DNA of 64,000 nt from Nitrosopumilus sp. Lineage in GTDB: Archaea; Thermoproteota; Nitrososphaeria; Nitrososphaerales; Nitrosopumilaceae. Below the pieces are notes generated by a model. That model made no database searches, was not told the origin of the DNA, and saw only the letters and a list, made by a program, of their open reading frames with translations. Of this stretch, positions 2,854 to 48,147 are shown piece after piece. Every line of letters starts with the position of its first letter. Within the stretch, counting starts at the first letter, position 1. The stretch is taken from positions 1,216,001-1,280,000 of the forward strand of contig OZ244732.1 in the NCBI GenBank assembly GCA_965219345.1. Direction: 5' to 3'. The position numbers were made by a program, and so were the translations under genes.

Positions 2854-2937
2854 TGGATCATAATATTAGAGAATAGTATTAAAACATAGATTAAATTGGT
2901 TCTGTGTAATCTTCGGGTGCCGATTTTCTCAAAAAAA

Positions 2938-4056
2938 TTACTCAGCAGCCGTACTGAGTGAGGCGTTTTGGATTATGGTTTTCCACTTGTTAACCCCATC
3001 AACCTCAATGAGTGATGCTTCCGCAGGGGTCTTGCCTTTGAGTGCAGAGTGCTTCTTGGTATAGTTGTAATAGACTCTCATGCCATCCAGTATGGCTGTG
3101 TCCATTTTCTTCAGGCCTCTAAAGACTTTCTCACGGTCACGGATTTCAGAATTTAACCTCTCTTGCTTGTTGTTATTGTCTTCGTCTCGTTTCCCAGCCA
3201 GGTGAATGTGCTTTACGTGGTTTGTCTTTTTGCCAAAGACTTTTTTGGATGATTTGGCATAGGCTGGAAGCCCGTCAGTGATGAAGTTTCTGGGGGATTT
3301 GCCAGCTTGTTTCTTGGTCATGTCAAGGAGTGAATCCGCATTGTGCTGGAATTTGTTGTCGGCTAGGTCACTAGCCAGCCAATACCTCGTGTCATCATCC
3401 ATGCTTGCAAACAGATAGCATTGCTTTCCGTTTATCTTTATCCACATCTCATCAGCCCTGAACCAGTTGCCAACCCTAGGTACTATTCCGTTGAGGTATT
3501 CGGCAGCCAATTTGGAGTATTTGTCGACCCAGTTGTAAACGGTCTTGTGGCATACGTCTATTCCCATCATCTCATAGTGGTCGGCAATATCCCTGACTGA
3601 CATTCCTGTAAAATACATCTGTAGATCTCCGGTGATTATCTTATCGTCAAACTGTTTCTTCTCGAAGCCAAAGTTTGCTGTAAAACGTCTCTTGCAGTCA
3701 AGACACTGGAACCTCTGGACATTGCCATTCTTGGTCTGTCTTGTGCCGTTCTTCTTGATATTGCCAGAGTCACAATACTTGCAGAGTTGCAGCTTGGATC
3801 TTTCCAAGATTCTAAACATGTTGTTTCTGTAACCGCCATTTCGTCTCATCATATCCAAGACAATCTTGATGTGCTTGCAGTCTGCGTTTCTGCTGGTATG
3901 GTCTGGATACTCACATACCAGCTTCTCACCATTTGTGACTGTATAGAATTTTGTAGGATCGGTTTGTGATCTTACTTTGAATCTGTCGTGGTCAATCTGG
4001 GAGCAATAACCGCTTGTTGACATGATTTGTTTTGCACGTTCCATTCTTGGGTTCAT
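2938..4056 (-). CDS. IS6-like DDE transposase with N-terminal SWIM-like and Zn-ribbon domains
   Basis: ADEMW / ITDG / QERLN triad; CKYC..CLDC ribbon; SWIM-like motif reads CEYPDH (CECKDH in the 48 kb relic), so possibly impaired; C-terminal TPAE..NKWKTIIQN. Confidence 0.85.
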   Translation of the reverse strand: MNPRMERAKQIMSTSGYCSQIDHDRFKVRSQTDPTKFYTVTNGEKLVCEYPDHTSRNADCKHIKIVLDMMRRNGGYRNNMFRILERSKLQLCKYCDSGNIKKNGTRQTKNGNVQRFQCLDCKRRFTANFGFEKKQFDDKIITGDLQMYFTGMSVRDIADHYEMMGIDVCHKTVYNWVDKYSKLAAEYLNGIVPRVGNWFRADEMWIKINGKQCYLFASMDDDTRYWLASDLADNKFQHNADSLLDMTKKQAGKSPRNFITDGLPAYAKSSKKVFGKKTNHVKHIHLAGKRDEDNNNKQERLNSEIRDREKVFRGLKKMDTAILDGMRVYYNYTKKHSALKGKTPAEASLIEVDGVNKWKTIIQNASLSTAAE

Positions 4057-4105
4057 GCGTGATTCCCCGTGAAAATTAATATAGAATGAAAAGAAATGAC
4101 ATGTG

Positions 4106-4191
4106 CGGCAGGAGTGGGATTTGAACCCACGATCTCGGCGAGAGACACAGATTCTGAATCTGTCGCTTTAACCTTGCTAAGCAATCCTGCC
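4106..4191 (-). tRNA. Atypical class II tRNA, anticodon CAG (nominal Leu), discriminator G73
   Basis: GGCAGGA TT GCTT AGCAAGGTTA AAGC G ACAGA TTCAGAA TCTGT GTCTCTCGCCGAGATC GTGGG TTCAAAT CCCAC TCCTGCC G; all stems pair. Confidence 0.88.
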
Positions 4192-4199
4192 ATGTATAT

Positions 4200-4250
4200 A
4201 TTATGCGTACACATAATATAATCCTTGCTATTAAGGGTACACATAAATAT
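4200..4250. promoter_or_regulatory. Divergent promoter with GTACACATAA repeats (putative AbrB-like operator)
   Basis: Near-palindrome TATGCGTACACATA; GTACACATAA at 4207 and 4237; TTATAT about 30 nt upstream of the tRNA. Confidence 0.45.
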
Positions 4251-4270
4251 CAACAATTCCTACGTATTGC

Positions 4271-4435
4271 ATGACAAGGTGGAAAAAAGACGAGACGGAA
4301 TTTCCGGTCAGCGTAAGCTCCAACGGACATACAAAGTCATGCAGGATTCCAAAGCCCATACTTGAACTTCTTGACAACCCAAACTCGCTAAAATTTATCG
4401 TCAAGGGGAAGCATGTAGAGATCGAGGGCGAATGA
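4271..4435 (+). CDS. Small AbrB/MazE-like DNA-binding protein (54 aa)
   Basis: MTRWKKDETEFPVSVSSNGHTKSCRIPKPILELLDNPNSLKFIVKGKHVEIEGE; divergent from the transposase; below ORF-track cutoff. Confidence 0.65.
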   Translation: MTRWKKDETEFPVSVSSNGHTKSCRIPKPILELLDNPNSLKFIVKGKHVEIEGE

Positions 4436-4613
4436 TAGTGCTTTCATCTAATAGAATTAAGCGAGAATTAAGCGAGAATTACCCTCGACATGGGGGCTTT
4501 AGTTTCTCCAAATCTAAATGCAACCATATTGAAAACAAATCCCTAATTCCAAACAATCCTCCGAATAAGTTTGGGATTTTCACTGCAACAGGCAAAAAGG
4601 TGGTTAATCCACT

Positions 4614-5621
4614 ATGACATCAAACAATGCCTCACTTAGCAATGCAAGAGCTACCAAACAAGACGAGTTTTACACGCAACTTGTAGATATTGAGAACGAG
4701 CTTAAACACTATCAAAATCACTTTAGTGACAAGACTGTCCTTTGCAACTGCGATGATCCACGAATCAGCAGCTTCTTCCACTATTTTTCATACAACTTTG
4801 AAAGACTAAAACTGAAAAAACTCATCGCAACCTGTTATAAAAACCAGCAGATGGATTTGTTTAGCCGGAATAAATCAGAATGTGCAATATATCTCGAATA
4901 CAATGGTGACAAAAACCAAAACAAGGTTCCTGATCCTAAAGAAATTGGAATACACTACTTTAAAAAAGACGGGGATTTTCGCAGTGATGAATGCATTGAA
5001 ATCCTGAAACGTGCAGATATTGTAGTGACGAATCCACCATTCTCACTATTTCGGGAATACGTTGCACAGTTGATAAAATACAAAAAACACTTTCTAATCA
5101 TAGGAAATCAAAATGCCATAGCCACCAGAGAAATATTTCCTTTAATCAAAGATAATAAAATGTGGTTAGGTGAGAGTATACATAGTGGGGATAGAGAGTT
5201 TGGTGTTCCAGACAATTACACATTAAATGCTGCTGGATTTAGGATCGATGGGGATGGAAGAAAATTCATAAGAGTAAAAGGGGTTCGTTGGTTTACCAAC
5301 ATTGATTACAAGGAACGCCATAAAGATTTGATCCTTTACAAAAAATACAACAAGACAGAATATCCAAAATATGACAATTACAATGCCATAAACATCAACA
5401 AAACAAAAGAAATTCCAATGGATTATGACGGAATAATGGGTGTGCCAATAACATTCGTGGATAAATACAATCCAGAACAGTTTGAAATAATAGATTTGAT
5501 TAATCGATATAGTTTGTTGGACGGCCCGACACCCACAACGAAAGGAAAATACCTAACAGAATTAGGAGATAAACGAAAATATTCTCGCATCATAATCAAA
5601 CACAAAAGGATTGCCCGTTAA
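4614..5621 (+). CDS. Adenine DNA methyltransferase, M.EcoRI-like family
   Basis: DEFYT, LCNCDDP, GDFRS, DIVVTNPPFSLFREY, MGVPITF motifs. Confidence 0.9.
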   Translation: MTSNNASLSNARATKQDEFYTQLVDIENELKHYQNHFSDKTVLCNCDDPRISSFFHYFSYNFERLKLKKLIATCYKNQQMDLFSRNKSECAIYLEYNGDKNQNKVPDPKEIGIHYFKKDGDFRSDECIEILKRADIVVTNPPFSLFREYVAQLIKYKKHFLIIGNQNAIATREIFPLIKDNKMWLGESIHSGDREFGVPDNYTLNAAGFRIDGDGRKFIRVKGVRWFTNIDYKERHKDLILYKKYNKTEYPKYDNYNAININKTKEIPMDYDGIMGVPITFVDKYNPEQFEIIDLINRYSLLDGPTPTTKGKYLTELGDKRKYSRIIIKHKRIAR

Positions 5622-6703
5622 TGAATATAGAACTCAAAAAAATCACTGTCAAGGAGTTATCCAAAGATTATGTGGATAATGCAGAAGAAGGCGTTTTAGG
5701 CTATGGGGGTAAACTAGACATTAGACCACCCTATCAAAGGGAATTTATTTACAAAGATAAACAACGGGATGCGGTAATTGATACAATCACCAAGAAGTTC
5801 CCACTCAATGTCATGTATTGGTCAGTACGGGATGATGGAAATTTTGAGATTATCGACGGGCAGCAAAGGACAATATCCGTCTGTCAATATATCACTGGGG
5901 CATTTTCGTTTAATTCAAAATATTTCCACAATCTACAGGATGACGAACAGAAAAAAATTCTCGATTATGAGTTGATGGTTTACCTGTGCAGTGGAACGGA
6001 CAGTGAGAGGCTAAAGTGGTTTGAGACTATCAATATTGCAGGAGAAAAATTAACTTCCCAAGAACTTAGAAACGCAGTCTATTCAGGATCATGGATTTCA
6101 GATGCCAAACTCTATTTCAGTAAAAGGAACTGCGCAGCTTATGGAATTGCCAGTGATTATGTAAGTGGCTCTGCTATCCGTCAGGAATATCTTGAAACAG
6201 CTATAAGGTGGATTTCAAAGGATAGCATAAATGAATACATGGCCAAACACCAGCACGACCAAAACGCCAACATATTGTGGAATTATTTTCAGGCCGTGAT
6301 TAACTGGGTTGAGACCACATTCAAAATCAAGAGAAAGCAGATGAAAAATGTGGATTGGGGTCCCCTGTATAACAAATACAATGATACACAGATGGATACA
6401 GAACAGATTGAGGAAGAAACGAAAAAACTGTTTTTGGATGATGATGTTACCAAGAAAAGCGGGATTTATCCATACATACTTACACGGAATGAAAAATATC
6501 TCTCGATCCGTTCATTTACAGAAAATATGAAGCAAAAAGTCTATGAATTACAGAAGGGCAAATGTGTAAAATGTCAGGAACATTTTGATCTATCTGAAAT
6601 GGAGGCAGACCATATCAAACCTTGGCATGAAGGCGGTAAAACGACAGAGGAAAACTGTCAGTTACTTTGTAAGAACGACAATCGTGCAAAGTCAGGAAAA
6701 TAG
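5621..6703 (+). CDS. DUF262 (ParB-like/GmrSD) + HNH endonuclease
   Basis: YQREF, IIDGQQR, FETIN; C-terminal CVKC..EADHIKPWHEGGKTTEENCQLLC. Confidence 0.88.
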   Translation: MNIELKKITVKELSKDYVDNAEEGVLGYGGKLDIRPPYQREFIYKDKQRDAVIDTITKKFPLNVMYWSVRDDGNFEIIDGQQRTISVCQYITGAFSFNSKYFHNLQDDEQKKILDYELMVYLCSGTDSERLKWFETINIAGEKLTSQELRNAVYSGSWISDAKLYFSKRNCAAYGIASDYVSGSAIRQEYLETAIRWISKDSINEYMAKHQHDQNANILWNYFQAVINWVETTFKIKRKQMKNVDWGPLYNKYNDTQMDTEQIEEETKKLFLDDDVTKKSGIYPYILTRNEKYLSIRSFTENMKQKVYELQKGKCVKCQEHFDLSEMEADHIKPWHEGGKTTEENCQLLCKNDNRAKSGK

Positions 6704-6724
6704 GAAATCCGTCTAGGTACAATC

Positions 6725-6773
6725 TAGAGAAGATCCACATTCCACACCCATATCACGATAACTTAGCAGAACC
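6725..6773 (-). mobile_element. Nested transposon end of the element-2 type
   Basis: Reverse complement GGTTCTGCTAAGTTAT plus subterminal AGAGAAGATCCA, both shared with 19513-19559. Confidence 0.8.
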
Positions 6774-6774
6774 C

Positions 6775-6999
6775 GTGCCCGTACAGGTCAAACGCTGGAA
6801 GCACAAGGTCGGGCGGCCAGAGATAGACAAGTTTAAGACGGCAGTGGAGAGGGACAGGAAGAAATCCGGTATTATAGTGGCACATGAGTTTAGTAGGGAT
6901 GCAATTAACGAGGCTGCACGAATTAAGAGTGATACTGGCATATCAATAGAATTGAGACCGGTGAAGGACGTTTTTGGTTGGTCTAAATACGATGTTTAG
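6775..6999 (+). pseudogene. C-terminal remnant of Mrr-type restriction endonuclease domain
   Basis: QVKRW..VGRPEIDKF..GIIVAHEFSRDA; begins immediately after the nested TIR. Confidence 0.75.
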
Positions 7000-7156
7000 C
7001 TAGGCATAAATTTCATCTCGGAGAAAATTTACATTCCATGCCAGCACCCGAAGATTACACAGAACCGACAATAGGTTCTATTATCAATGGCTATGAACTT
7101 GATGAAATATTTACCTTTGAGTTTTTTGGTCTATATCTTTAACTGGATCGACAAGA

Positions 7157-7633
7157 TTATAGCTCTCTCCATTCTATTCCTATATGTTTAGGTGTATTGG
7201 TAAGCACACCTGTTGCACAGCACAGCATTACTTTGAGTCCAGTTTCGGTTTTTCCTCTTATTTGGGCATTACTAGCTTTACTGTGTCCTGATTTTGCCTC
7301 TATCCACATAAAGTTCTCTACTTTAACATTCTCAATATTATCTAATGTGCAATTTCCCCCAAGATCATACCCTAAAAAGTCATAAAGATATCTAGGCCTG
7401 TACATATTGCCAACTTTGACTATCTTGCATATCTCATGATGTATGTCATTTGGTATTTTTATTGATATTCTGCTTTCTTTAAAGTCAAATAATATATCTT
7501 TTACAAATAATCCTCCTTGTAATATTCTATCAAAGTCAACACATGCAATGTTTTTCTCAAAAAGAAACTTTTTACAGTAAATTTCGCCTAGCATTCCCAA
7601 TAATTGGTCATCTACATTAAGATAGTGTAGCAT
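7157..7633 (-). CDS. Hypothetical protein, possible PD-(D/E)xK nuclease
   Basis: GE..YDF..IEAKS motif spacing. Confidence 0.45.
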   Translation of the reverse strand: MLHYLNVDDQLLGMLGEIYCKKFLFEKNIACVDFDRILQGGLFVKDILFDFKESRISIKIPNDIHHEICKIVKVGNMYRPRYLYDFLGYDLGGNCTLDNIENVKVENFMWIEAKSGHSKASNAQIRGKTETGLKVMLCCATGVLTNTPKHIGIEWREL

Positions 7634-7898
7634 ATCTATATTTTTTTGATTTTTTATTAAAGGCTTTTTACTGTAATATTCCTTACAATTTTGCTTGGAA
7701 TTGGTTTAATTCCCATTAAAACTTGTGATAATTCGTTGATTTTATTCTGTTATCTTTATGATATTCTTACAACTAGGACAAGCTAGAGTTATCTGTCTCT
7801 TTGTTATCTTATTTGCTACTACTTTACGGCAATATTTGGTGCATACTATCTGAAATTCATGCAATATTGCATATCTTACTGACATTATTTATCACACA

Positions 7899-8408
7899 TT
7901 ATACAAAGGTCTCAAGTGTTTGTTGTGCTATCATGGTTTTTCTAGGCTTTGTTTTTTTCACTGCATCTCTAGTGTCTTTTTGCCAGTGTTTGATTCTACT
8001 TGTGCTTATTTTGCAATTATGAGAGTCTTGCTCAATTAGGATATAGTTTCTTTGTAGTAATGTTGCTGCAATACCAGTTGTACCAGATCCTGCAAATGGA
8101 TCAAGTATTGTATCTCCTTTTCTACTTTCCATTGTGATTAGATGTGCCATTAGTTTGATTGGCTTTATGGTTGGATGTGTATTTTTTCTCGGGGTCTCGC
8201 CTCTGTGACCTGGGGTGTCGTTGCTTTTCTTACGTCCTTTTGATGTTATTTTTTCCATTGGCATATTCTCTAATCCTTTTTCTTTTTCTGCACGTGATGG
8301 CTTTGGGGTAATTACAAACTGTGAGATGTATTGTTTTTGCCACCACATATCAAGATCAAAGTATCTAGGGAAAGAAGCTATGACAATAATATAATAAATA
8401 ATATTCAA
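7899..8408 (-). pseudogene. C-terminal fragment of N4/N6 DNA methyltransferase
   Basis: HPTIKP and ILDPFAGSGTTG present; DPPY catalytic half missing. Confidence 0.75.
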
Positions 8409-8409
8409 C

Positions 8410-9207
8410 TTAATCTGCTTTTACTAAAAAATAACATTCATCACTCAACAGTGTTACAATAGCACCATTACAGTTCTCAGCATGTTCTTGAAATTCATAT
8501 TCATACATATTCTTTATAATGATCGTACCATGCCATACGTCAAAATTAAATCTATATTCATATTCATCAGAAAAAAAACGACCATCACCCCAATACCTAG
8601 GTGGTGCAATATCAATAGGAATTTGTCCTTTATCTATTAAAGATAGAGTATCTGGAATGCCGTCATAGAAATGGATTAACTTACTGTCTGCCAGTTTAAG
8701 ATACCAAATATCAGCATTAGAACGGTCATCATTTTTAGCATAGTTTGGTATGAAATCACAATAACGAAATGAAAAATGATTAAATTCAATTATAGAACCA
8801 AATGATTTCCTTGCCGGTGTTTTTAAGTTATAAATAGAAAGCATTTTGAATAAATCCATACAGTCTTGTGGATCTGTTGATATGTTAAATTCAAGTAAAC
8901 ATGGTTTAGATGAATTTATCACATAAACACATAGAACATCACCATTTCTTGAAATTGCACAATCAGAGTTAATATCAAGAAGATCAATGAATTCTGTACT
9001 GCATTCTTTTGCAAGGTTTACACCATCAGTAGCAAATCCTCTCTCTGTTAATTTTTTGATTGAATCATCATATACATAAATTATATGATTGTTTTGTTTC
9101 TTCATTACAGAATAATCTTCAAACTTGTAAGCATATACTTCGGCACTTGTAAAACCCATAACTAAAAAGCATACAGGAATTACTAAAAGAAATAATTTAT
9201 TGTACAT
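8410..9207 (-). CDS. Secreted hypothetical protein, paralogue of 1-751
   Basis: Likely start MYNKLF at 9207 by analogy with copy 1; signal peptide; KKLTERGF motif. Confidence 0.8.
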   Translation of the reverse strand: MYNKLFLLVIPVCFLVMGFTSAEVYAYKFEDYSVMKKQNNHIIYVYDDSIKKLTERGFATDGVNLAKECSTEFIDLLDINSDCAISRNGDVLCVYVINSSKPCLLEFNISTDPQDCMDLFKMLSIYNLKTPARKSFGSIIEFNHFSFRYCDFIPNYAKNDDRSNADIWYLKLADSKLIHFYDGIPDTLSLIDKGQIPIDIAPPRYWGDGRFFSDEYEYRFNFDVWHGTIIIKNMYEYEFQEHAENCNGAIVTLLSDECYFLVKAD

Positions 9208-9454
9208 TATTGAAGTTGTAATGCAGTTTTTGTATTTTCCCAAGATGAAAATATCTTATATGGTGTATCATCAGGGGGCAAACTTGTCTCCTTTTTTCAG
9301 TATTGATAAGAGGCTGCACATCTTTGGCTGGACGTTTATGCTGTACTTCTTTTTTGGGGTGTCATAGTCTTCTAATACTGTATATTGGCTATCTATCATG
9401 ACTAATATTTGTTATAATGATAAATAAATATAATGAAGTTATAATCTAAAACAA

Positions 9455-17146: not shown

Positions 17147-17226
17147 TATGCTTCCTTTTTTCTTTCTTTCACTATGAGGTTCTGCTAAGTTATGGGAATA
17201 TGAATTATCCAAATTGAATTTTGTAC

Positions 17227-18665
17227 CTATTCGGAATCAATCCTGCCGAACTTCATGCCTTCCTGGACCAAAAGTGCATTAAGTTCTGCCATGATAAGTT
17301 TTCCACCTTTTCTGCGGTTGCAGTTACCGCAAAGTAGCTGAAGATTCCCATCGTCATCAATGCCTCCCTTTGCCTTTGGCATTATGTGGTCTACTTCAAG
17401 ATCTTTGAACTGGTAGTGGTACCTGCATCCGTTGCAACAGCCTTGTTGTATACCGTATAGGGTATGTTTGATATTTTTCGATCTGTTTCCCTTTCTATTT
17501 GGTATGTCAGTTCTATGTATGACCTGCCCTGCTCCTGTGATAAATTTGGCAATGCCTGCATCCTTTCTTAGTCTTTGCTCGATTAGGGAATAGGCCCGTT
17601 CTGATATGTCACACCCTATCCATTGTCTGCCCAGTCTTTCTGCGGCCAGACATGCAGTGGCACACCCATAAAAAGGATCAAATACAATTTCACCAACACC
17701 ACTGCTACTTTCAATTATTCTTTCCAACAATGCAAGTGGTTTTTGGGTAGGATAGCCAAGTCTTTCTTCACCTTGAACATTCTGTATATCTGTCCAAATA
17801 TTCTGTAATGGTATCCCTTTTGCCTCATCAAGATATATCTTGTATCTGGGAATGCCGTTCTTGCTCTTTGGCATATGTATTCTTCCTTTTTTTTCCAATT
17901 CAAGCATTGATTCCAACGGCCTTTTCCATATTCTTACGTGTCCTTTGTACTCATATTCATATCCGCCGCCAGCCAGGCTTTCTGCGGTTAACATTATGGA
18001 ATTATACCTGCCACGTTCATCCTCGTTTCTAAAATATCTTTTAATATCCTTCTCTGAGTATGGCTTGTAGACGGCATGCCAGTTATAATTTTTTGTCTTT
18101 GTGTAAAATAATATTTGATCAGACACCTTGCCATATCTCTTTCCGTCATTATGGACGTTTGGAGTCCTTCTCCATGTAATATCATTACAAAATGATCCAG
18201 ATCCAAATATTGCATCAAGAACCAGCTTGAGATAGTGACTCATGGTAGTATCACAGTGCAGGTACAACGAACCTGTCGGTTTCAGAATCCTGTACATCTC
18301 CAAAATCCTGATTGCCATGTATATCAGATACGACATGGCAGAATCCCCGCCTATTTTTCCAGCCGTACCTATGATTGAATACAGCGGATAATTCTGTTCT
18401 GCAATTTCACCCCACCACGACGTATCAATGTCACTCAAGGTCCATGTGTCCCTGAACTCTGCACCTGCAGCCTTGGAACCGATAGGTGCCGCATAGTTAT
18501 GCTTTGAGTTGAAGGGAGGATCAAGATAGATTAAATCAACAGAATCATCTTCCATGCCCCTCATAACAGGCAGATTGTCTTTTATGAAGATTGTACGGTT
18601 TTTGATTCCATTTGATTTCGGGGGGGGGGGGCGGGCGGTGTGGGGATTCGTGCTTTTGAGGTCAT
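17227..18665 (-). CDS. N6/N4 DNA methyltransferase fused to HNH nuclease; 5' end frameshifted in G12 tract
   Basis: DLIYLDPPF, YPTQKP, DPFYGCAT; C-terminal CNGC..DHIMPKAKGG..NLQLLCGNCNRRK. Conserved NRTIFIKDNL lies upstream of the 18564 ATG. Confidence 0.85.
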
Positions 18666-18944
18666 CTTACACGTTCCTTATTCCAATATGGGGAATTGCA
18701 TTTCTTATTGTTACAGTTCTTTGGTGATTCATTTCTGCTATACCATATTTCACTGCATCTGTTACACTCATGTCTCCAATATGCACCATCTACTTTCATA
18801 CTCATATCGATACCGTAAATTCATCATTATATAATCATTTACTACATATAGCCAAAAAGTATAGTATATATGTAGGTAAAAAATATAGTATGATATGAAA
18901 TGTGTAATGATGAAAAATAAAATCAAAGGCATGGAAAAATAACT

Positions 18945-19250
18945 ACAAGGCAAAAAATCCACTTTGGAAAGACACTGAACATGTCAGACACATTCACATG
19001 AAAGGTGACAAAAACAATAATCGCGTGGAACGTTTGAACGGTACAATCAGGGACAGGGAAGTCTCATACAGGGGGATAAAGAAAATGAAGTCCACTCTTT
19101 GCAGGATTTCAGACATTCTACAATTTCTCAAAGAAGCATGGAGGTATAGGCAAAAAGACACCAGCTGAGATGGCAGATATTCTAGTTGATGGGAATAACA
19201 AGTGGAAGACCGTAATCCAAAATGCCAGTCTAAACAAAAATTACGTCTAG
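18945..19250 (+). pseudogene. C-terminal remnant of IS6-like transposase
   Basis: HVRHIHMKGDKNNNRVERLNGTIRDRE..(frameshift)..YNFSKKHGGIGKKTPAE..GNNKWKTVIQNASL, collinear with 2938-4056. Confidence 0.9.
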
Positions 19251-19416
19251 GCATAGAAACTTTTTATTTAGTAGTTTGACTAATAAAAATGGGCTTAAGT
19301 CCCTCTCTGTCTTGGTCGTTGTGGTTCGCTATCACAATATAGACAGTAAAAAATGAAGCCTTATACCCCGCATGGCATAAGGTGGATTTTTATTATTTTT
19401 AATTTTTCAAATCTTT

Positions 19417-19498
19417 GCTACGATACGCAAGCTCGGTATGCGGGGAGCCTCCTAAGCTTCTGCCATGCGGTTCGGGGGTTTAAATCCCTCTCGTAGCG
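19417..19498 (+). tRNA. Atypical tRNA, anticodon CCT (nominal Arg), with 13-nt variable arm
   Basis: GCTACGA TA CGCA AGCTCGGTA TGCG G GGAGC CTCCTAA GCTTC TGCCATGCGGTTC GGGGG TTTAAAT CCCTC TCGTAGC G. Confidence 0.8.
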
Positions 19499-19660
19499 TT
19501 GTTTTTCAATTCAGAGAAGATCCATGTTTCATTCTATATCCCCATAACTTAGCAGAACCACATTTTGAAATGGTATAATTAGATGAACTTTTTTTATTTT
19601 TTTACGAAAATGCATTATCTGCTAGCTAATATTGTTATTTATGCAAAAATCTAGTTAGTA

Positions 19661-47024: not shown

Positions 47025-47217
47025 TCTATTACTTTATTTTTACTAACCGTTTCTAATAAATTTATATCGTTTTATTTTAAATAATAGTTCTAATAGATAT
47101 ATATTGTTTTATTTTAAAAGAACATTGTAAAAACGATATTTTATACTTGAATTATGTATAGCAGATCAAAAAATGTATGTATTTTTTCTTTAAATATAGA
47201 TTAGTGTCTTAAAAGTT

Positions 47218-48147
47218 AACACTTTTTCACGATCTCTTATTTTACCGTTCAGTCTTTCTATTTTGTTATTGTTCTTGTCACCTTTCAAGTGAATGTGTCT
47301 AACGTGGTTTGTATCATTGCCAAACACTTTCTTACTTGATTTCATGTACGCTGGCAATCAATCTTTTATGAAATTTCTAGGATTCTTGCCAGCTTGCTCT
47401 TTAGTCATGGTCAATAGATTGTCTGCATTATGATGAAATTTGTTGTCTGCAGCATCAGAAGCCAACCAAAATCTAGAATCATCATCCATTGAGGCAAAGA
47501 GATAACACATTGTTTGCCGTTGATTTTTACCCATGCCTCGTCTGCCCTGAACCAGTTACCAACTCTAGGCACAATGTCATTAAGATACCTTGATGTCATT
47601 TTGGAATATTTTTCAATCCAGTTGTAAATACTGCAATAACTTACCTCAATCTCTTCTTTGCTCAAAACAGTCTGCAATGTCTCTAACTGACATTTCAGTA
47701 TAATACATCTGCAAGGCCCTAGTAATGATAACATCCTTTGATCTCATTTTTTCAAATCCGAAATTGGCAGTAAATCGCTTCTTGCAGTCAAGACATTTGT
47801 AACTCTGCTTATTACCTTATTTGGATTTTCTCATACCTCATTTTTTGATACTGCCTGAATCACAATACTTGCATAATGATAACTTGTTTCGTTCCATGAT
47901 TCTGAATGTATTGTTACGATAGCACTTGTTTTTTCGGATTATCTCCAACACGATTTTGATGTGCTTGCAATCATCTTTTCTAACCTGATGATCTTTACAT
48001 TCACAGATTAATCCATCTCCAATCTTTGACACAACGTAAAAATTTTCAGGATTGGCCTGTGATCTTACTTAACTTGTCATGGTCAAATTGAGAACAGTAT
48101 CCTTTTGACTCCATTATTTGTTTGGCTCACTGTGTTCGTGAATTCAT
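47218..48147 (-). pseudogene. Degraded IS6-like transposase, paralogue of 2938-4056
   Basis: CECKDH..CKHIK, LCKYCDSG, VPRVGNWFRADE, IERLNGKIRDREK; multiple frameshifts; C-terminus lost. Confidence 0.9.

Follow-up and report, generated by a model that had tools for sequence, protein, structure and literature searches.

The window analyzed here, a stretch of 64,000 nucleotides from Nitrosopumilus sp. (GenBank assembly GCA_965219345.1, contig OZ244732.1; G000:C1:1216001-1280000), comes from a genome of 1.91 Mb with 36% G+C. At positions 2898-7066 it carries a unit of 4169 bp in total, here called element 1, in which terminal inverted repeats enclose one tRNA and five to six genes, among them that of a transposase related to the IS6 family of insertion sequences (ISs). 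Three further elements of the same genome serve for comparison: element 2 in the same window (17178-19559), element B (C1:1007879-1010720) and element D (C1:1729074-1732317). C1 coordinates refer to the contig of the source genome, L-labels (L003, L004 etc.) to loci around relatives and G-labels to genomes. Because contigs of four runs from one study span both outer junctions of element 1, its arrangement is not an assembly join; these contigs may be the assembly's own source and do not count as independent support. Joints like 2919-to-7045 also occurred in contigs, with sides of just 20-23 nt, and were discarded as repeat artefacts.

The two arms of element 1 (2898-2920 and 7044-7066) are 23 nt each, 100% complementary, and begin GGTTCTGT. 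When the 23-mer was searched with at most 3 mismatches it was found in two places in the window, just the two arms (0.00 expected from 100 shuffles). The IS6 end signature GG..cTGT is present at the start of the left repeat, which is native to the element 1 transposase because its collinearity with the 3' end of the transposase gene matches that of two 983-bp family copies in the genome. The transposase itself comprises an N-terminal CxY..CxH motif, a zinc ribbon (CxxC..CxxC, aa 92-121), a helix-turn-helix motif (HTH) and an IS6-type DDE domain. The NCBIfam model transpos_IS6 (NF033587) aligned over model positions 1-201 of 202 (5.8e-35) with 120.8 bits, about 4 bits below its cut-off of 125, and an IS1/IS1595 zinc domain was recognized at aa 92-127 (30.5 bits vs a cut-off of 28). 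D202, D261, E299 and R306 were invariant across 14 aligned relatives, in keeping with the HTH and DDE arrangement of IS6/IS240 enzymes. Residue 50 is a tyrosine in element 1; in 14 of 14 relatives it is the putative zinc-ligand cysteine of a CxC..CxH motif that is visible by eye. Another transposase homologue (57% identity over aa 28-312) is found at window 47217-48068 (-).

The tRNA upstream of the transposase gene exceeds the cut-off of the Rfam tRNA model (RF00005; 58.8 vs 29 bits). It is followed by a spacer of which 46 of 49 nt are identical to element D, and whose motif is retained in L001, L003 and L015 and occurs in a variant form in L010 and G1717. The divergent promoter region on the other side of the tRNA contains the direct repeat GTACACATAA at 4207-4216 and 4237-4246, with an AT-rich TATA-like box in between. 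The same layout of two repeats around a TATA-like box recurs in six other elements, the repeat sequence being distinct in each, and in L009, which is without a tRNA, the repeat-flanked promoter stands directly before the transposase. The 54-aa product of the divergent gene gave 802 database clusters at E<=0.001, with one UniRef name reading 'AbrB/MazE/SpoVT family' and named homologues from Nitrosopumilus, Nitrosarchaeum and Nitrosocosmicus; its AlphaFold2 model has a pLDDT of 78.6. Four paralogues are encoded in the genome, each beside an IS6-like element or remnant. The L009 layout and the element-specific repeats therefore suggest a repressor/operator pair, with the tRNA inserted downstream of the promoter, and the small protein is predicted to repress the divergent promoter via the direct repeats as operators.

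Beyond the AbrB-like gene, an 11-bp tandem repeat (GAATTAAGCGA, 2.5 copies at 4454-4481) lies inside orf61, just 5' of the methylase gene, and may be a control site for the restriction-modification (R-M) operon. The start of the nuclease gene overlaps the methylase stop by 1 nt, and the REase_II match is full length (protein 1-360 on model 1-372). With PADLOC calls as type II methylase and type II restriction enzyme (full length), respectively, the methylase and its DUF262-HNH neighbor are predicted to form a complete type II R-M pair, which, judging from known R-M behavior, would defend the host, stabilize the element and pay for it. The Mrr stub that follows spans just positions 52-101 of 115 in the Mrr_cat profile. 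Most of these parts had been named in an earlier reading of the letters alone, made without database searches (the original prediction): the perfect 23-bp repeats, the IS6-like DDE transposase with its zinc domain and the tRNA in the transposase leader were all recovered, and Pfam matches were obtained for the EcoRI-like methylase, the DUF262-HNH protein and the Mrr stub. The 'SWIM' label attached to the transposase finds no support, as Pfam SWIM (PF04434) had no match in the element 1 enzyme, with its CxY, or in three relatives at E up to 10.

Table 1. Features of elements 1 and 2 and of related units (window positions unless a contig or locus label is given).
Feature	Position	Strand	Evidence or remark
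Element 1: left terminal inverted repeat, type 1, GGTTCTGTGTAATCTTCGGGTGC	2898-2920		Inverted-repeat search, shuffles
Element 1: transposase, 372 aa	2938-4056	-	Pfam DDE_Tnp_IS240 (PF13610) 3.7e-13
Element 1: spacer, 49 nt, tRNA to transposase start	4057-4105	-	T-run and motif TTCTATATTAATTTTC..GGGG
Element 1: class-II tRNA, anticodon CAG, long variable arm, G73, 7/5 cloverleaf	4106-4191	-	ARAGORN; Rfam 58.8 bits
Element 1: divergent promoter region	4192-4270		Two 10-bp direct repeats around AT-rich TATA-like box
Element 1: AbrB/MazE/SpoVT-like small protein, 54 aa, putative element-specific repressor	4271-4435	+	No significant Pfam, PDB or Foldseek match; 802 homologous clusters
Element 1: orf61, doubtful gene or regulatory region	4432-4617	+	No family match, no paralogue
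Element 1: type II N6-adenine DNA methyltransferase, EcoRI_methylase family	4614-5621	+	PF13651 1.1e-137; PADLOC MTase_II 4.4e-128
Element 1: type II restriction endonuclease, DUF262/GmrSD_N and HNH	5621-6703	+	Pfam; PADLOC REase_II 2.8e-132
Element 1: internal foreign element end, type 2	6717-6773	-	Repeat at 6749-6773
Element 1: truncated Mrr-family (type IV) nuclease, C-terminal part, 74 aa	6775-6999	+	Mrr_cat 4e-9; PADLOC mREase_IV 4.4e-5
Element 1: right terminal inverted repeat, type 1	7044-7066		Subterminal motif resembles other family ends
Element 2: left repeat, type 2	17178-17201		Inverted-repeat search
Element 2: N6/N4 DNA methylase fused to HNH nuclease	17227-18564	-	Pfam, PADLOC
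Element 2: transposase remnant, C-terminal ~100 aa	18926-19242	+	78-83% nucleotide identity to 3' ends of four full-length transposase genes
Element 2: class-II tRNA, anticodon CCT, G73, T-loop U56	19417-19498	+	ARAGORN; Rfam 44.9 bits
Element 2: right repeat, type 2	19536-19559		Inverted-repeat search
Unit, 3978 bp	C1:745195-749172		Matching repeats
Element B, 2842 bp	C1:1007879-1010720		Duplication GTTCTGAT, no tRNA
Unit, 3380 bp	C1:1033406-1036785		Methylase-like cargo; 7-bp match TAATGAT
Element D, 3244 bp	C1:1729074-1732317		tRNA inside; 8-bp duplication TCATATCA
Two 983-bp units, short transposase	C1:401802, C1:1450318		Matching repeats
636-bp unit, no open reading frame	Source genome		Matching repeats
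Unit with tRNA TAT	L003 2855-6186		8-bp duplication ACAGAACT
Unit with tRNA TAA	L004 4082-6780		8-bp duplication TGCCACAG
Unit with tRNA ATC	L019 2299-6424		8-bp duplication TTTAATAG
Unit with tRNA TAT	L015 583-5661		8-bp duplication GGACGGGC
Unit without tRNA	L009		8-bp duplication CTTTCAGG
Unit without tRNA	L006		8-bp duplication TCAATAAA

Element 1 is a mosaic, as five observations indicate. First, between the nuclease gene and the Mrr stub lies an internal end of a second type (6717-6773), whose 57 bp share 79-82% identity over 55-57 nt with both ends of the unit C1:745195-749172 and resemble the ends of element 2; the Mrr stub begins 2 nt beyond it. Second, the flanks of element 1 (ATTAAATT and GACAATAG) hold no 8-bp target-site duplication of the kind expected of IS6 elements. 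Third, positions 4234 to 6716, covering the cargo, are single-copy in the genome. Fourth, the genome holds the type-1 repeat in five perfect copies, and fifth, the transposase carries Tyr50. The unit also departs from the IS6 norm of 700-900 bp and a transposase alone. As regards replicative transposition through cointegrates, an IS6 trait, the missing duplication and the internal end abutting a truncated gene are only indirect signs, compatible with intramolecular events; adjacent deletions are a known effect of IS6 elements. Because an end of the second type borders the cut Mrr gene, insertion and adjacent deletion have joined at least two elements here. In the simplest reading, an Mrr-bearing type-1 element would have taken up a type-2 element with the R-M pair as its cargo, or recombined with it, and an IS6-style adjacent deletion would then have taken away the 5' part of the Mrr gene.

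That element 1 is instead a single intact and active transposon, moving as a whole via its perfect 23-bp repeats, appears unlikely. The repeats themselves and the full-length 372-aa open reading frame (ORF) with its DDE residues are in its favor, and the internal foreign end alone is no bar to movement: in L004, which has a nested inner end, the outer repeats are bordered by a perfect duplication of 8 bp. Nesting of element ends recurs and need not abolish mobility. Nevertheless, the absent duplication, the single-copy state, the Mrr gene cut by the internal end and the loss at residue 50 of a putative zinc site kept in all 14 relatives speak against an intact unit, and with five perfect genome copies of the type-1 repeat the pair can stem from two elements. 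The 4.2-kb transposon of the original prediction therefore holds as regards the parts inside the repeats, and its description as one mobile unit is overstated; the internal end, the missing duplication and the reduction of the element 2 transposase to a remnant were absent from that account. We consider it highly likely that window 2898-7066 is a mosaic, probably immobile member of a cargo-bearing IS6-type family (2-5 kb) that is common in Nitrosopumilaceae.

Searches beyond the window placed element 1 in this family. In the source genome, tblastn gave 41 transposase matches, and the 7-mer GGTTCTG occurs 537 times, where base composition would crudely predict about 129. Units in other Nitrosopumilaceae genomes measure 2.0-5.1 kb and have perfect repeats of 24-32 bp, methylase or nuclease cargo is recurrent across the family, and 8-bp target duplications flank the sister copies B, D, L003, L004, L006, L009, L015 and L019 (Table 1). 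IS6-type units with their cargo, tRNAs included, have thus transposed as wholes. Transposase relatives (E<=1e-20) were found in 82 of 201 Nitrosopumilaceae genomes and in 20 of 27 genera, a tally that takes in three unpublished genomes (G077, G092 and G093), used for this count alone; no relative was found when viral contigs were scanned with the transposase. A 124-bp mini-element at C1:1029414-1029537 consists of the element 1 left repeat, the last 21 transposase codons and a second repeat, with 109 nt at 100% identity to element 1. The 983-bp copies at C1:401802 and C1:1450318 share flanks in inverted orientation (12 of 12 bases), and replicative inversion was rejected as the explanation: because nearby repeats are mirrored too, the sharing reflects a larger inverted duplication and not a target-duplication signature. 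The mirrored stretch (C1:401802-404843 and 1448345-1451300) exceeds 3 kb, and the two halves of this inverted duplication lie about 1.05 Mb apart.

The family has a core of four parts. Its IS6 DDE transposase, extended at the N-terminus by a zinc-binding region, acts on the GGTTCTG... ends and makes 8-bp target duplications, as seen in the sister copies and not in element 1. A divergently encoded AbrB-like protein of 54-60 aa would bind two element-specific direct repeats as its presumed operators. A class-II tRNA is present in a subset of elements, in a slot either between the promoter and the transposase gene (element 1) or just past the transposase 3' end (element 2). Finally, variable cargo, here the R-M pair, lies beyond the AbrB-like gene.

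Element 2 differs in that its transposase is reduced to a C-terminal remnant; it is non-autonomous, and no target duplication was found at its flanks. Its methylase-HNH fusion has a 76%-identical paralogue at C1:1438416-1439591 in a similar element. The CCT tRNA at 19417-19498 was missed at default Rfam filters and reached 44.9 bits with permissive filters (cut-off 29). The related repeats, the R-M gene and the odd tRNA that had been noted for element 2 from the letters alone were thereby confirmed.

The CAG tRNA of element 1 has a twin in element D (C1:1730533-1730619) from which it differs at 1 of 87 nt, and the order of AbrB-like gene, tRNA, 49-nt spacer and transposase is the same in both elements; the 1280-nt block aligned over the transposase gene and the tRNA is merely 77% identical. 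A separate, host-type tRNA-Leu(CAG) at C1:491459-491543 aligns with the other host Leu tRNAs, so the element tRNA is not the only Leu-CAG gene of the genome, a possibility raised in the original prediction. Besides element D, four duplication-flanked units in other genomes (L003, L004, L015 and L019) hold a long-arm tRNA. Since sister units with repeats and 8-bp duplications enclose them, the tRNAs are internal cargo and not attachment sites, in agreement with the original prediction. Its wider claim, a transposon family coupling defense genes with non-canonical tRNAs, stands for the sister units with duplications and needs correction in two respects, as the tRNA is facultative and the window tRNA is a canonical 7/5 cloverleaf.

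The association was also seen from the side of the tRNAs. When 52 tRNA-like loci were examined (51 Rfam matches and the window Arg-CCT), eight lay within 250 bp of a transposase-homologue match, all eight being extra or odd ones; stretches no more than 500 bp from such matches make up only 2.7% of the genome. Two further tRNAs (334078 and 951659) are positioned a few bases off an element end or beside an AbrB-like gene. R1, a tRNA model built from 16 IS tRNAs only and containing no host sequence, was applied to 21 close loci, and in 7 of them a long-arm tRNA was found beside the transposase. Five genomes that have several copies of the transposase yielded ordinary tRNA-Ser genes as their best R1 matches, and no clear extra class-II tRNA was seen there, with a TAA tRNA in G019 as an ambiguous exception. 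A 95-nt tRNA beside the distant relative L058 was left out of the count as probably being an intron-containing host tRNA-Thr: its body is class I with A73 and an insert, and the locus lacks element ends. Both Arg-CCT copies of the genome are linked to ISs, and a class-I Arg-CCT was not detected; as further tRNAs that should be present likewise escaped detection (Trp, Glu-TTC, Pro-CGG and Leu-TAA), tRNA detection is incomplete. Three short degenerate tRNA-like sequences (C1:72288-72362, 787950-788025 and 1438222-1438293; 27.9-48.6 bits, two with irregular anticodon loops) each lie 100-240 bp from a transposase C-terminal remnant and are probably decayed cargo tRNAs. In a sister element at L036 ~1990-2110 (C1:1716990-1717110) the tRNA is downstream of the transposase; the upstream slot contains a ~100-nt hairpin (GAGGGC...GCCCTC, then a T-run) with UGAUGA and CUGA motifs that recall C/D-box RNAs.

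The 16 aligned IS tRNAs are all 7/5 cloverleaves with a long variable arm, the stem of which has at least 4 bp. U8, A14, G19, A21, U33, G53, T54, T55, A58 and C61 are invariant in 16 of 16, position 32 is always a pyrimidine and position 37 always a purine, and the discriminator is G73 in 15 of 16. The tRNAs have been kept intact. Their anticodons (CAG, CCT, TCT, GAT, TAT, GAA, TAA and ATC, with TAT in 5 of 16) correspond to Leu, Ile, Arg, Phe or Asp, and none is a Ser anticodon (NGA or GCU); those in the upstream slot are CAG, TAT or GAA. When R1 was applied to host tRNAs, tRNA-Ser scored 69.4-79.8 bits and tRNA-Leu 53.6-64.2 bits, and the same order was found in other genomes: among the 23 best R1 loci of five other genomes, run through ARAGORN, 14 were tRNA-Ser, all ranked above four Leu, the remaining five being intron-length matches with no call or a doubtful one. 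Furthermore, when the anticodon and variable arms are set aside, the TAT tRNA at C1:1038939 shares 88% identity with host tRNA-Ser(TGA). By sequence, the IS tRNAs are thus closer to tRNA-Ser than to tRNA-Leu. The discriminator of the window tRNA is G73, its variable-arm loop is TCGCC and its D-arm is Ser-like, whereas A73 and variable arms that end in AGGAG are found in the three host Leu tRNAs aligned. It accordingly shows the long variable arm and G73 of archaeal tRNA-Ser without a Ser anticodon, and has neither the A73 nor the host-type variable-arm loop of archaeal tRNA-Leu. Its oddity is this mismatch of body and anticodon in an otherwise canonical cloverleaf, and its sequence marks it as a maintained passenger that bears every hallmark of a decoding tRNA.

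Seryl- and leucyl-tRNA synthetases disregard the anticodon, according to the text available from PMC11028032. Because the body type of the IS tRNAs is served by these anticodon-blind enzymes, the default expectation is charging with Ser, or less likely Leu, whatever the anticodon. The IS tRNAs are in this way predicted to decode and to be charged by an anticodon-blind synthetase, and CUG would be read as Ser or as Leu by the window tRNA. That charging indeed follows the body, with mistranslation as a potential outcome, is put forward tentatively. Equally tentative is the broader proposal that Nitrosopumilaceae ISs, both IS6-like and IS1595, could spread body-charged (Ser or Leu) mobile missense-suppressor tRNAs by which Leu, Ile, Arg, Phe, Asp and Gly codons would be misread. 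In the IS6-like elements, the AbrB-like repressor may hold such a suppressor tRNA in check, and the tRNA might serve the element as a conditional toxin, working alongside the R-M cargo in addiction or abortive infection, or might diversify the proteome. A recoding of the transposase by its own tRNA was considered and rejected, as the cognate codons stand at Leu, Ile or variable columns and not at Ser columns of the homologues.

Alternatively, the tRNAs may supply codons, being charged in accordance with the anticodon and aiding the use of host-rare codons by the element in the manner of phage tRNAs, which we find doubtful. CTG accounts for 7 of 22 Leu codons in the element 1 transposase vs 10% in 764 long genome ORFs, an excess that is confounded by gene G+C (44% vs 36%). 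Cognate codons retain their standard meaning in element genes, as this explanation would have it, and the tRNAs of L004, L010 and L015 (TAA, GAA and one TAT) occur in DNA whose G+C content is about 51% and in which A/T-rich codons are expected to be rarer, just as the CAG tRNA sits in a genome of 36% G+C. However, the host already owns a tRNA-Leu(CAG), and there are also IS anticodons for common codons, GAT and TCT (AGA makes up 55% of Arg codons). G73 and a Ser-like body are by general identity rules unfit for Leu, Ile, Arg and Phe, and host Leu tRNAs have A73 in 3 of 3 cases. In addition, positions 36 and 37 depart from the usual pairing, all five TAT tRNAs having G37 and the GAA tRNA A37.

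It is quite improbable that the tRNA-shaped RNA is non-decoding and acts in cis, as a signal for RNase P/RNase Z processing or for attenuation on the way from promoter to transposase. Such a role would fit the six elements in which the tRNA occupies one common slot (41-51 nt ahead of the transposase start, with a T-run behind it), the variable anticodon among the slot tRNAs, the promoter of L009 standing before the transposase with no tRNA in between and the different hairpin with a T-run that fills the slot at C1:1717. On the other hand, the U33, purine 37 and pyrimidine 32 found in 16 of 16 would be needless for a mere processing signal, the tRNA is downstream of the transposase, in either orientation, in element 2, C1:1718375, L004, L012 and L019, and a class-II tRNA is also found within an IS1595-family element. 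Still more improbable, and already disfavored, is that elements land beside class-II tRNA genes as insertion targets and that nesting makes these look internal, since, despite a tRNA (C1:1038939-1039023) 8 nt outside an outward-facing repeat and several host tRNAs 0.65-1.1 kb from transposase fragments, five duplication-flanked units hold the tRNA well inside (between AbrB-like gene and transposase or between transposase and repeat), the window tRNA and its twin were duplicated along with their transposase, and the host Leu-CAG is located elsewhere.

The picture favored here, of a mosaic member of a transposon family with a putative repressor gene and passenger tRNAs expected to be charged by their bodies, has several observations to contend with. 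The order of the mosaic-forming events cannot be reconstructed, and no empty site was found among 40 other congeneric genomes, in which a DNA search gave no homologous region for the flanks 7067-8400 and 1400-2897. The tRNA is absent from 14 of 21 close loci, from all 28 more distant loci scanned with R1 (1.5-kb flanks) and from 3 of 3 loci that the conserved 20-nt spacer motif retrieved from metagenomes; as most relatives are without one, the tRNA is not needed for transposition, and its link to the transposon is facultative. Stem pairing in the 16 aligned tRNAs is 96.3% of cells, compared to 62.8% in shuffled and 40-50% in slid controls, with double changes at 23 of 26 pairs, a result that is partly given by construction since all 16 were chosen by a tRNA finder and that mainly shows the tRNAs to be intact. 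Outside the anticodon and variable arms, the similarity of the window tRNA to host Ser (0.64-0.68) and Leu tRNAs (0.61-0.65) does not separate the two. Codons cognate to the tRNAs stand at conserved Leu/Ile columns of the element's own transposase (7 of 7 CTG codons are Leu in most relatives), so insertion of Ser there would damage the element's own enzyme. As for the AbrB-like gene of the original prediction, the divergent 54-aa ORF is present and its family assignment lacks significant matches: neither Pfam nor a PDB sequence search gave a match at E up to 10, and the best Foldseek E-value was 1.9, the weak rows including MraZ, MazE, the AbrB N-domain and VapB.

Class-II tRNAs beside transposases extend beyond the IS6-like family. 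G100 contains an IS1595-family element of 2144 bp in two copies with 99.86% identity (L147 4940-7083 and L148 4940-7083; transposase PF12762 2.2e-40; repeats of ~24 bp, GGGAATTATAGTGATGGGTAGGAT), which are flanked by the 8-bp duplications AAAATTAT and AAAAAAAT and carry a class-II G73 tRNA with anticodon CAA 10 nt from the transposase gene. In G065, a class-II G73 tRNA with anticodon CCT lies 0.9 kb from an IS66-type transposase (L144 ~6001-8386) and one with anticodon ACC lies 0.35 kb from a DDE_Tnp_1 transposase (L145 ~4122-6085). A class-II CCT tRNA was also found beside an Eco57I-like methylase (G080 L146).

The surroundings of element 1 hold a further defense-gene remnant just to its right, a 169-aa ORF at window 7899-8408 (-) that matches only the C-terminal part (136-219 of 221) of the N6_N4 DNA methylase profile. 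A direct repeat of ~0.7-0.8 kb with 97% identity (window 1-~700 and 8457-~9160, reaching ~80 bp left of the window) brackets a 7.7-kb block consisting of a gene for a HYR-domain surface protein, element 1 and the methylase fragment. This repeat could be a duplicated gene (ORF 8410-9243) or an island scar.

A class-II body with a foreign anticodon that is charged by its body is known from the V-arm nev-tRNAs of nematodes and from Candida tRNA-Ser(CAG), both being eukaryotic chromosomal genes. The Candida tRNA shares class II, G73 and CAG with the window tRNA, and has G33 where the latter has U33; if charged with Ser, the window tRNA would be an archaeal, transposon-borne counterpart of this CUG-to-Ser tRNA. 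The tRNA genes of phages and mobile elements are usually normal isoacceptors in large genomes. They too travel with a selfish element, whereas here a single class-II tRNA is found beside the transposase in an IS of 2-5 kb. Bacterial allo-tRNAs are described as having Ser-type identity along with numerous anticodons other than those of Ser, most often UAU, and as lying near toxin-antitoxin genes and a transposon-related ORF, with missense suppression or a role as regulatory RNAs proposed for them (Mukai et al. 2017, PMC5389517; review PMC7609411). The IS tRNAs have in common with them the Ser-type body, the varied non-Ser anticodons with UAU commonest (5 of 16 here) and the nearness to toxin-antitoxin or transposon genes, but are archaeal and of 7/5 geometry, while allo-tRNAs are bacterial (Acidobacteria etc.) with 8/4 or 9/3 geometry. 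Unlike allo-tRNAs, they are demonstrably located inside transposons bounded by repeats and duplications.

For the IS6 family, the available text of the review by Varani et al. (2021, PMC7986276) describes elements that normally measure ~800 bp and have a single ORF, one passenger-carrying member (ISDsp3), ends that start GG with cTGT, and an N-terminal zinc-finger extension in clades h and i, mostly from Clostridia; a tRNA passenger is not mentioned in that text. The elements described here share with IS6/IS26 the IS240/IS6 DDE domain after an HTH, the GG..cTGT ends, the 8-bp duplications (in the sister copies) and rearrangements in the style of adjacent deletions, and differ in their size of 2-5 kb, their archaeal hosts (Nitrosopumilaceae) and their R-M genes, AbrB-like gene and, sometimes, a tRNA. 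In thaumarchaea, the same host phylum as for the present family, IS-like transposons were reported with one or two genes, and tRNA genes as integration targets of larger elements; the insertion-sequence text of that study, as far as available, contains neither cargo-bearing IS6-like units nor tRNAs inside them (Krupovic 2019, PMC6563490). In the open-access texts, which leave aside supplements that might list such elements, no description of tRNA genes inside archaeal IS6-like or other insertion sequences was found, consistent with the original prediction, which knew of none. Transposon-borne class-II tRNAs with disagreeing body and anticodon in Nitrosopumilaceae are thus real and, as far as found, undescribed.

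In the IS6 review text, ISs come close to the smallest possible mobile element, and a tRNA gene that rides regularly in a set position next to the transposase finds no mention there. The family shows that IS6-type elements can be vehicles of defense genes in archaea. The pairs of element-specific repressor and operator, together with tRNAs that differ mainly in their anticodon, are possible parts for archaeal genetics. If the tRNAs decode, the tRNA pool of the host would be altered at each jump. If, like other class-II tRNAs, they are charged by their bodies, they would be a natural cause of misread codons in ammonia oxidizers that abound in the sea and in soil, and would provide a ready-made route to codon reassignment.

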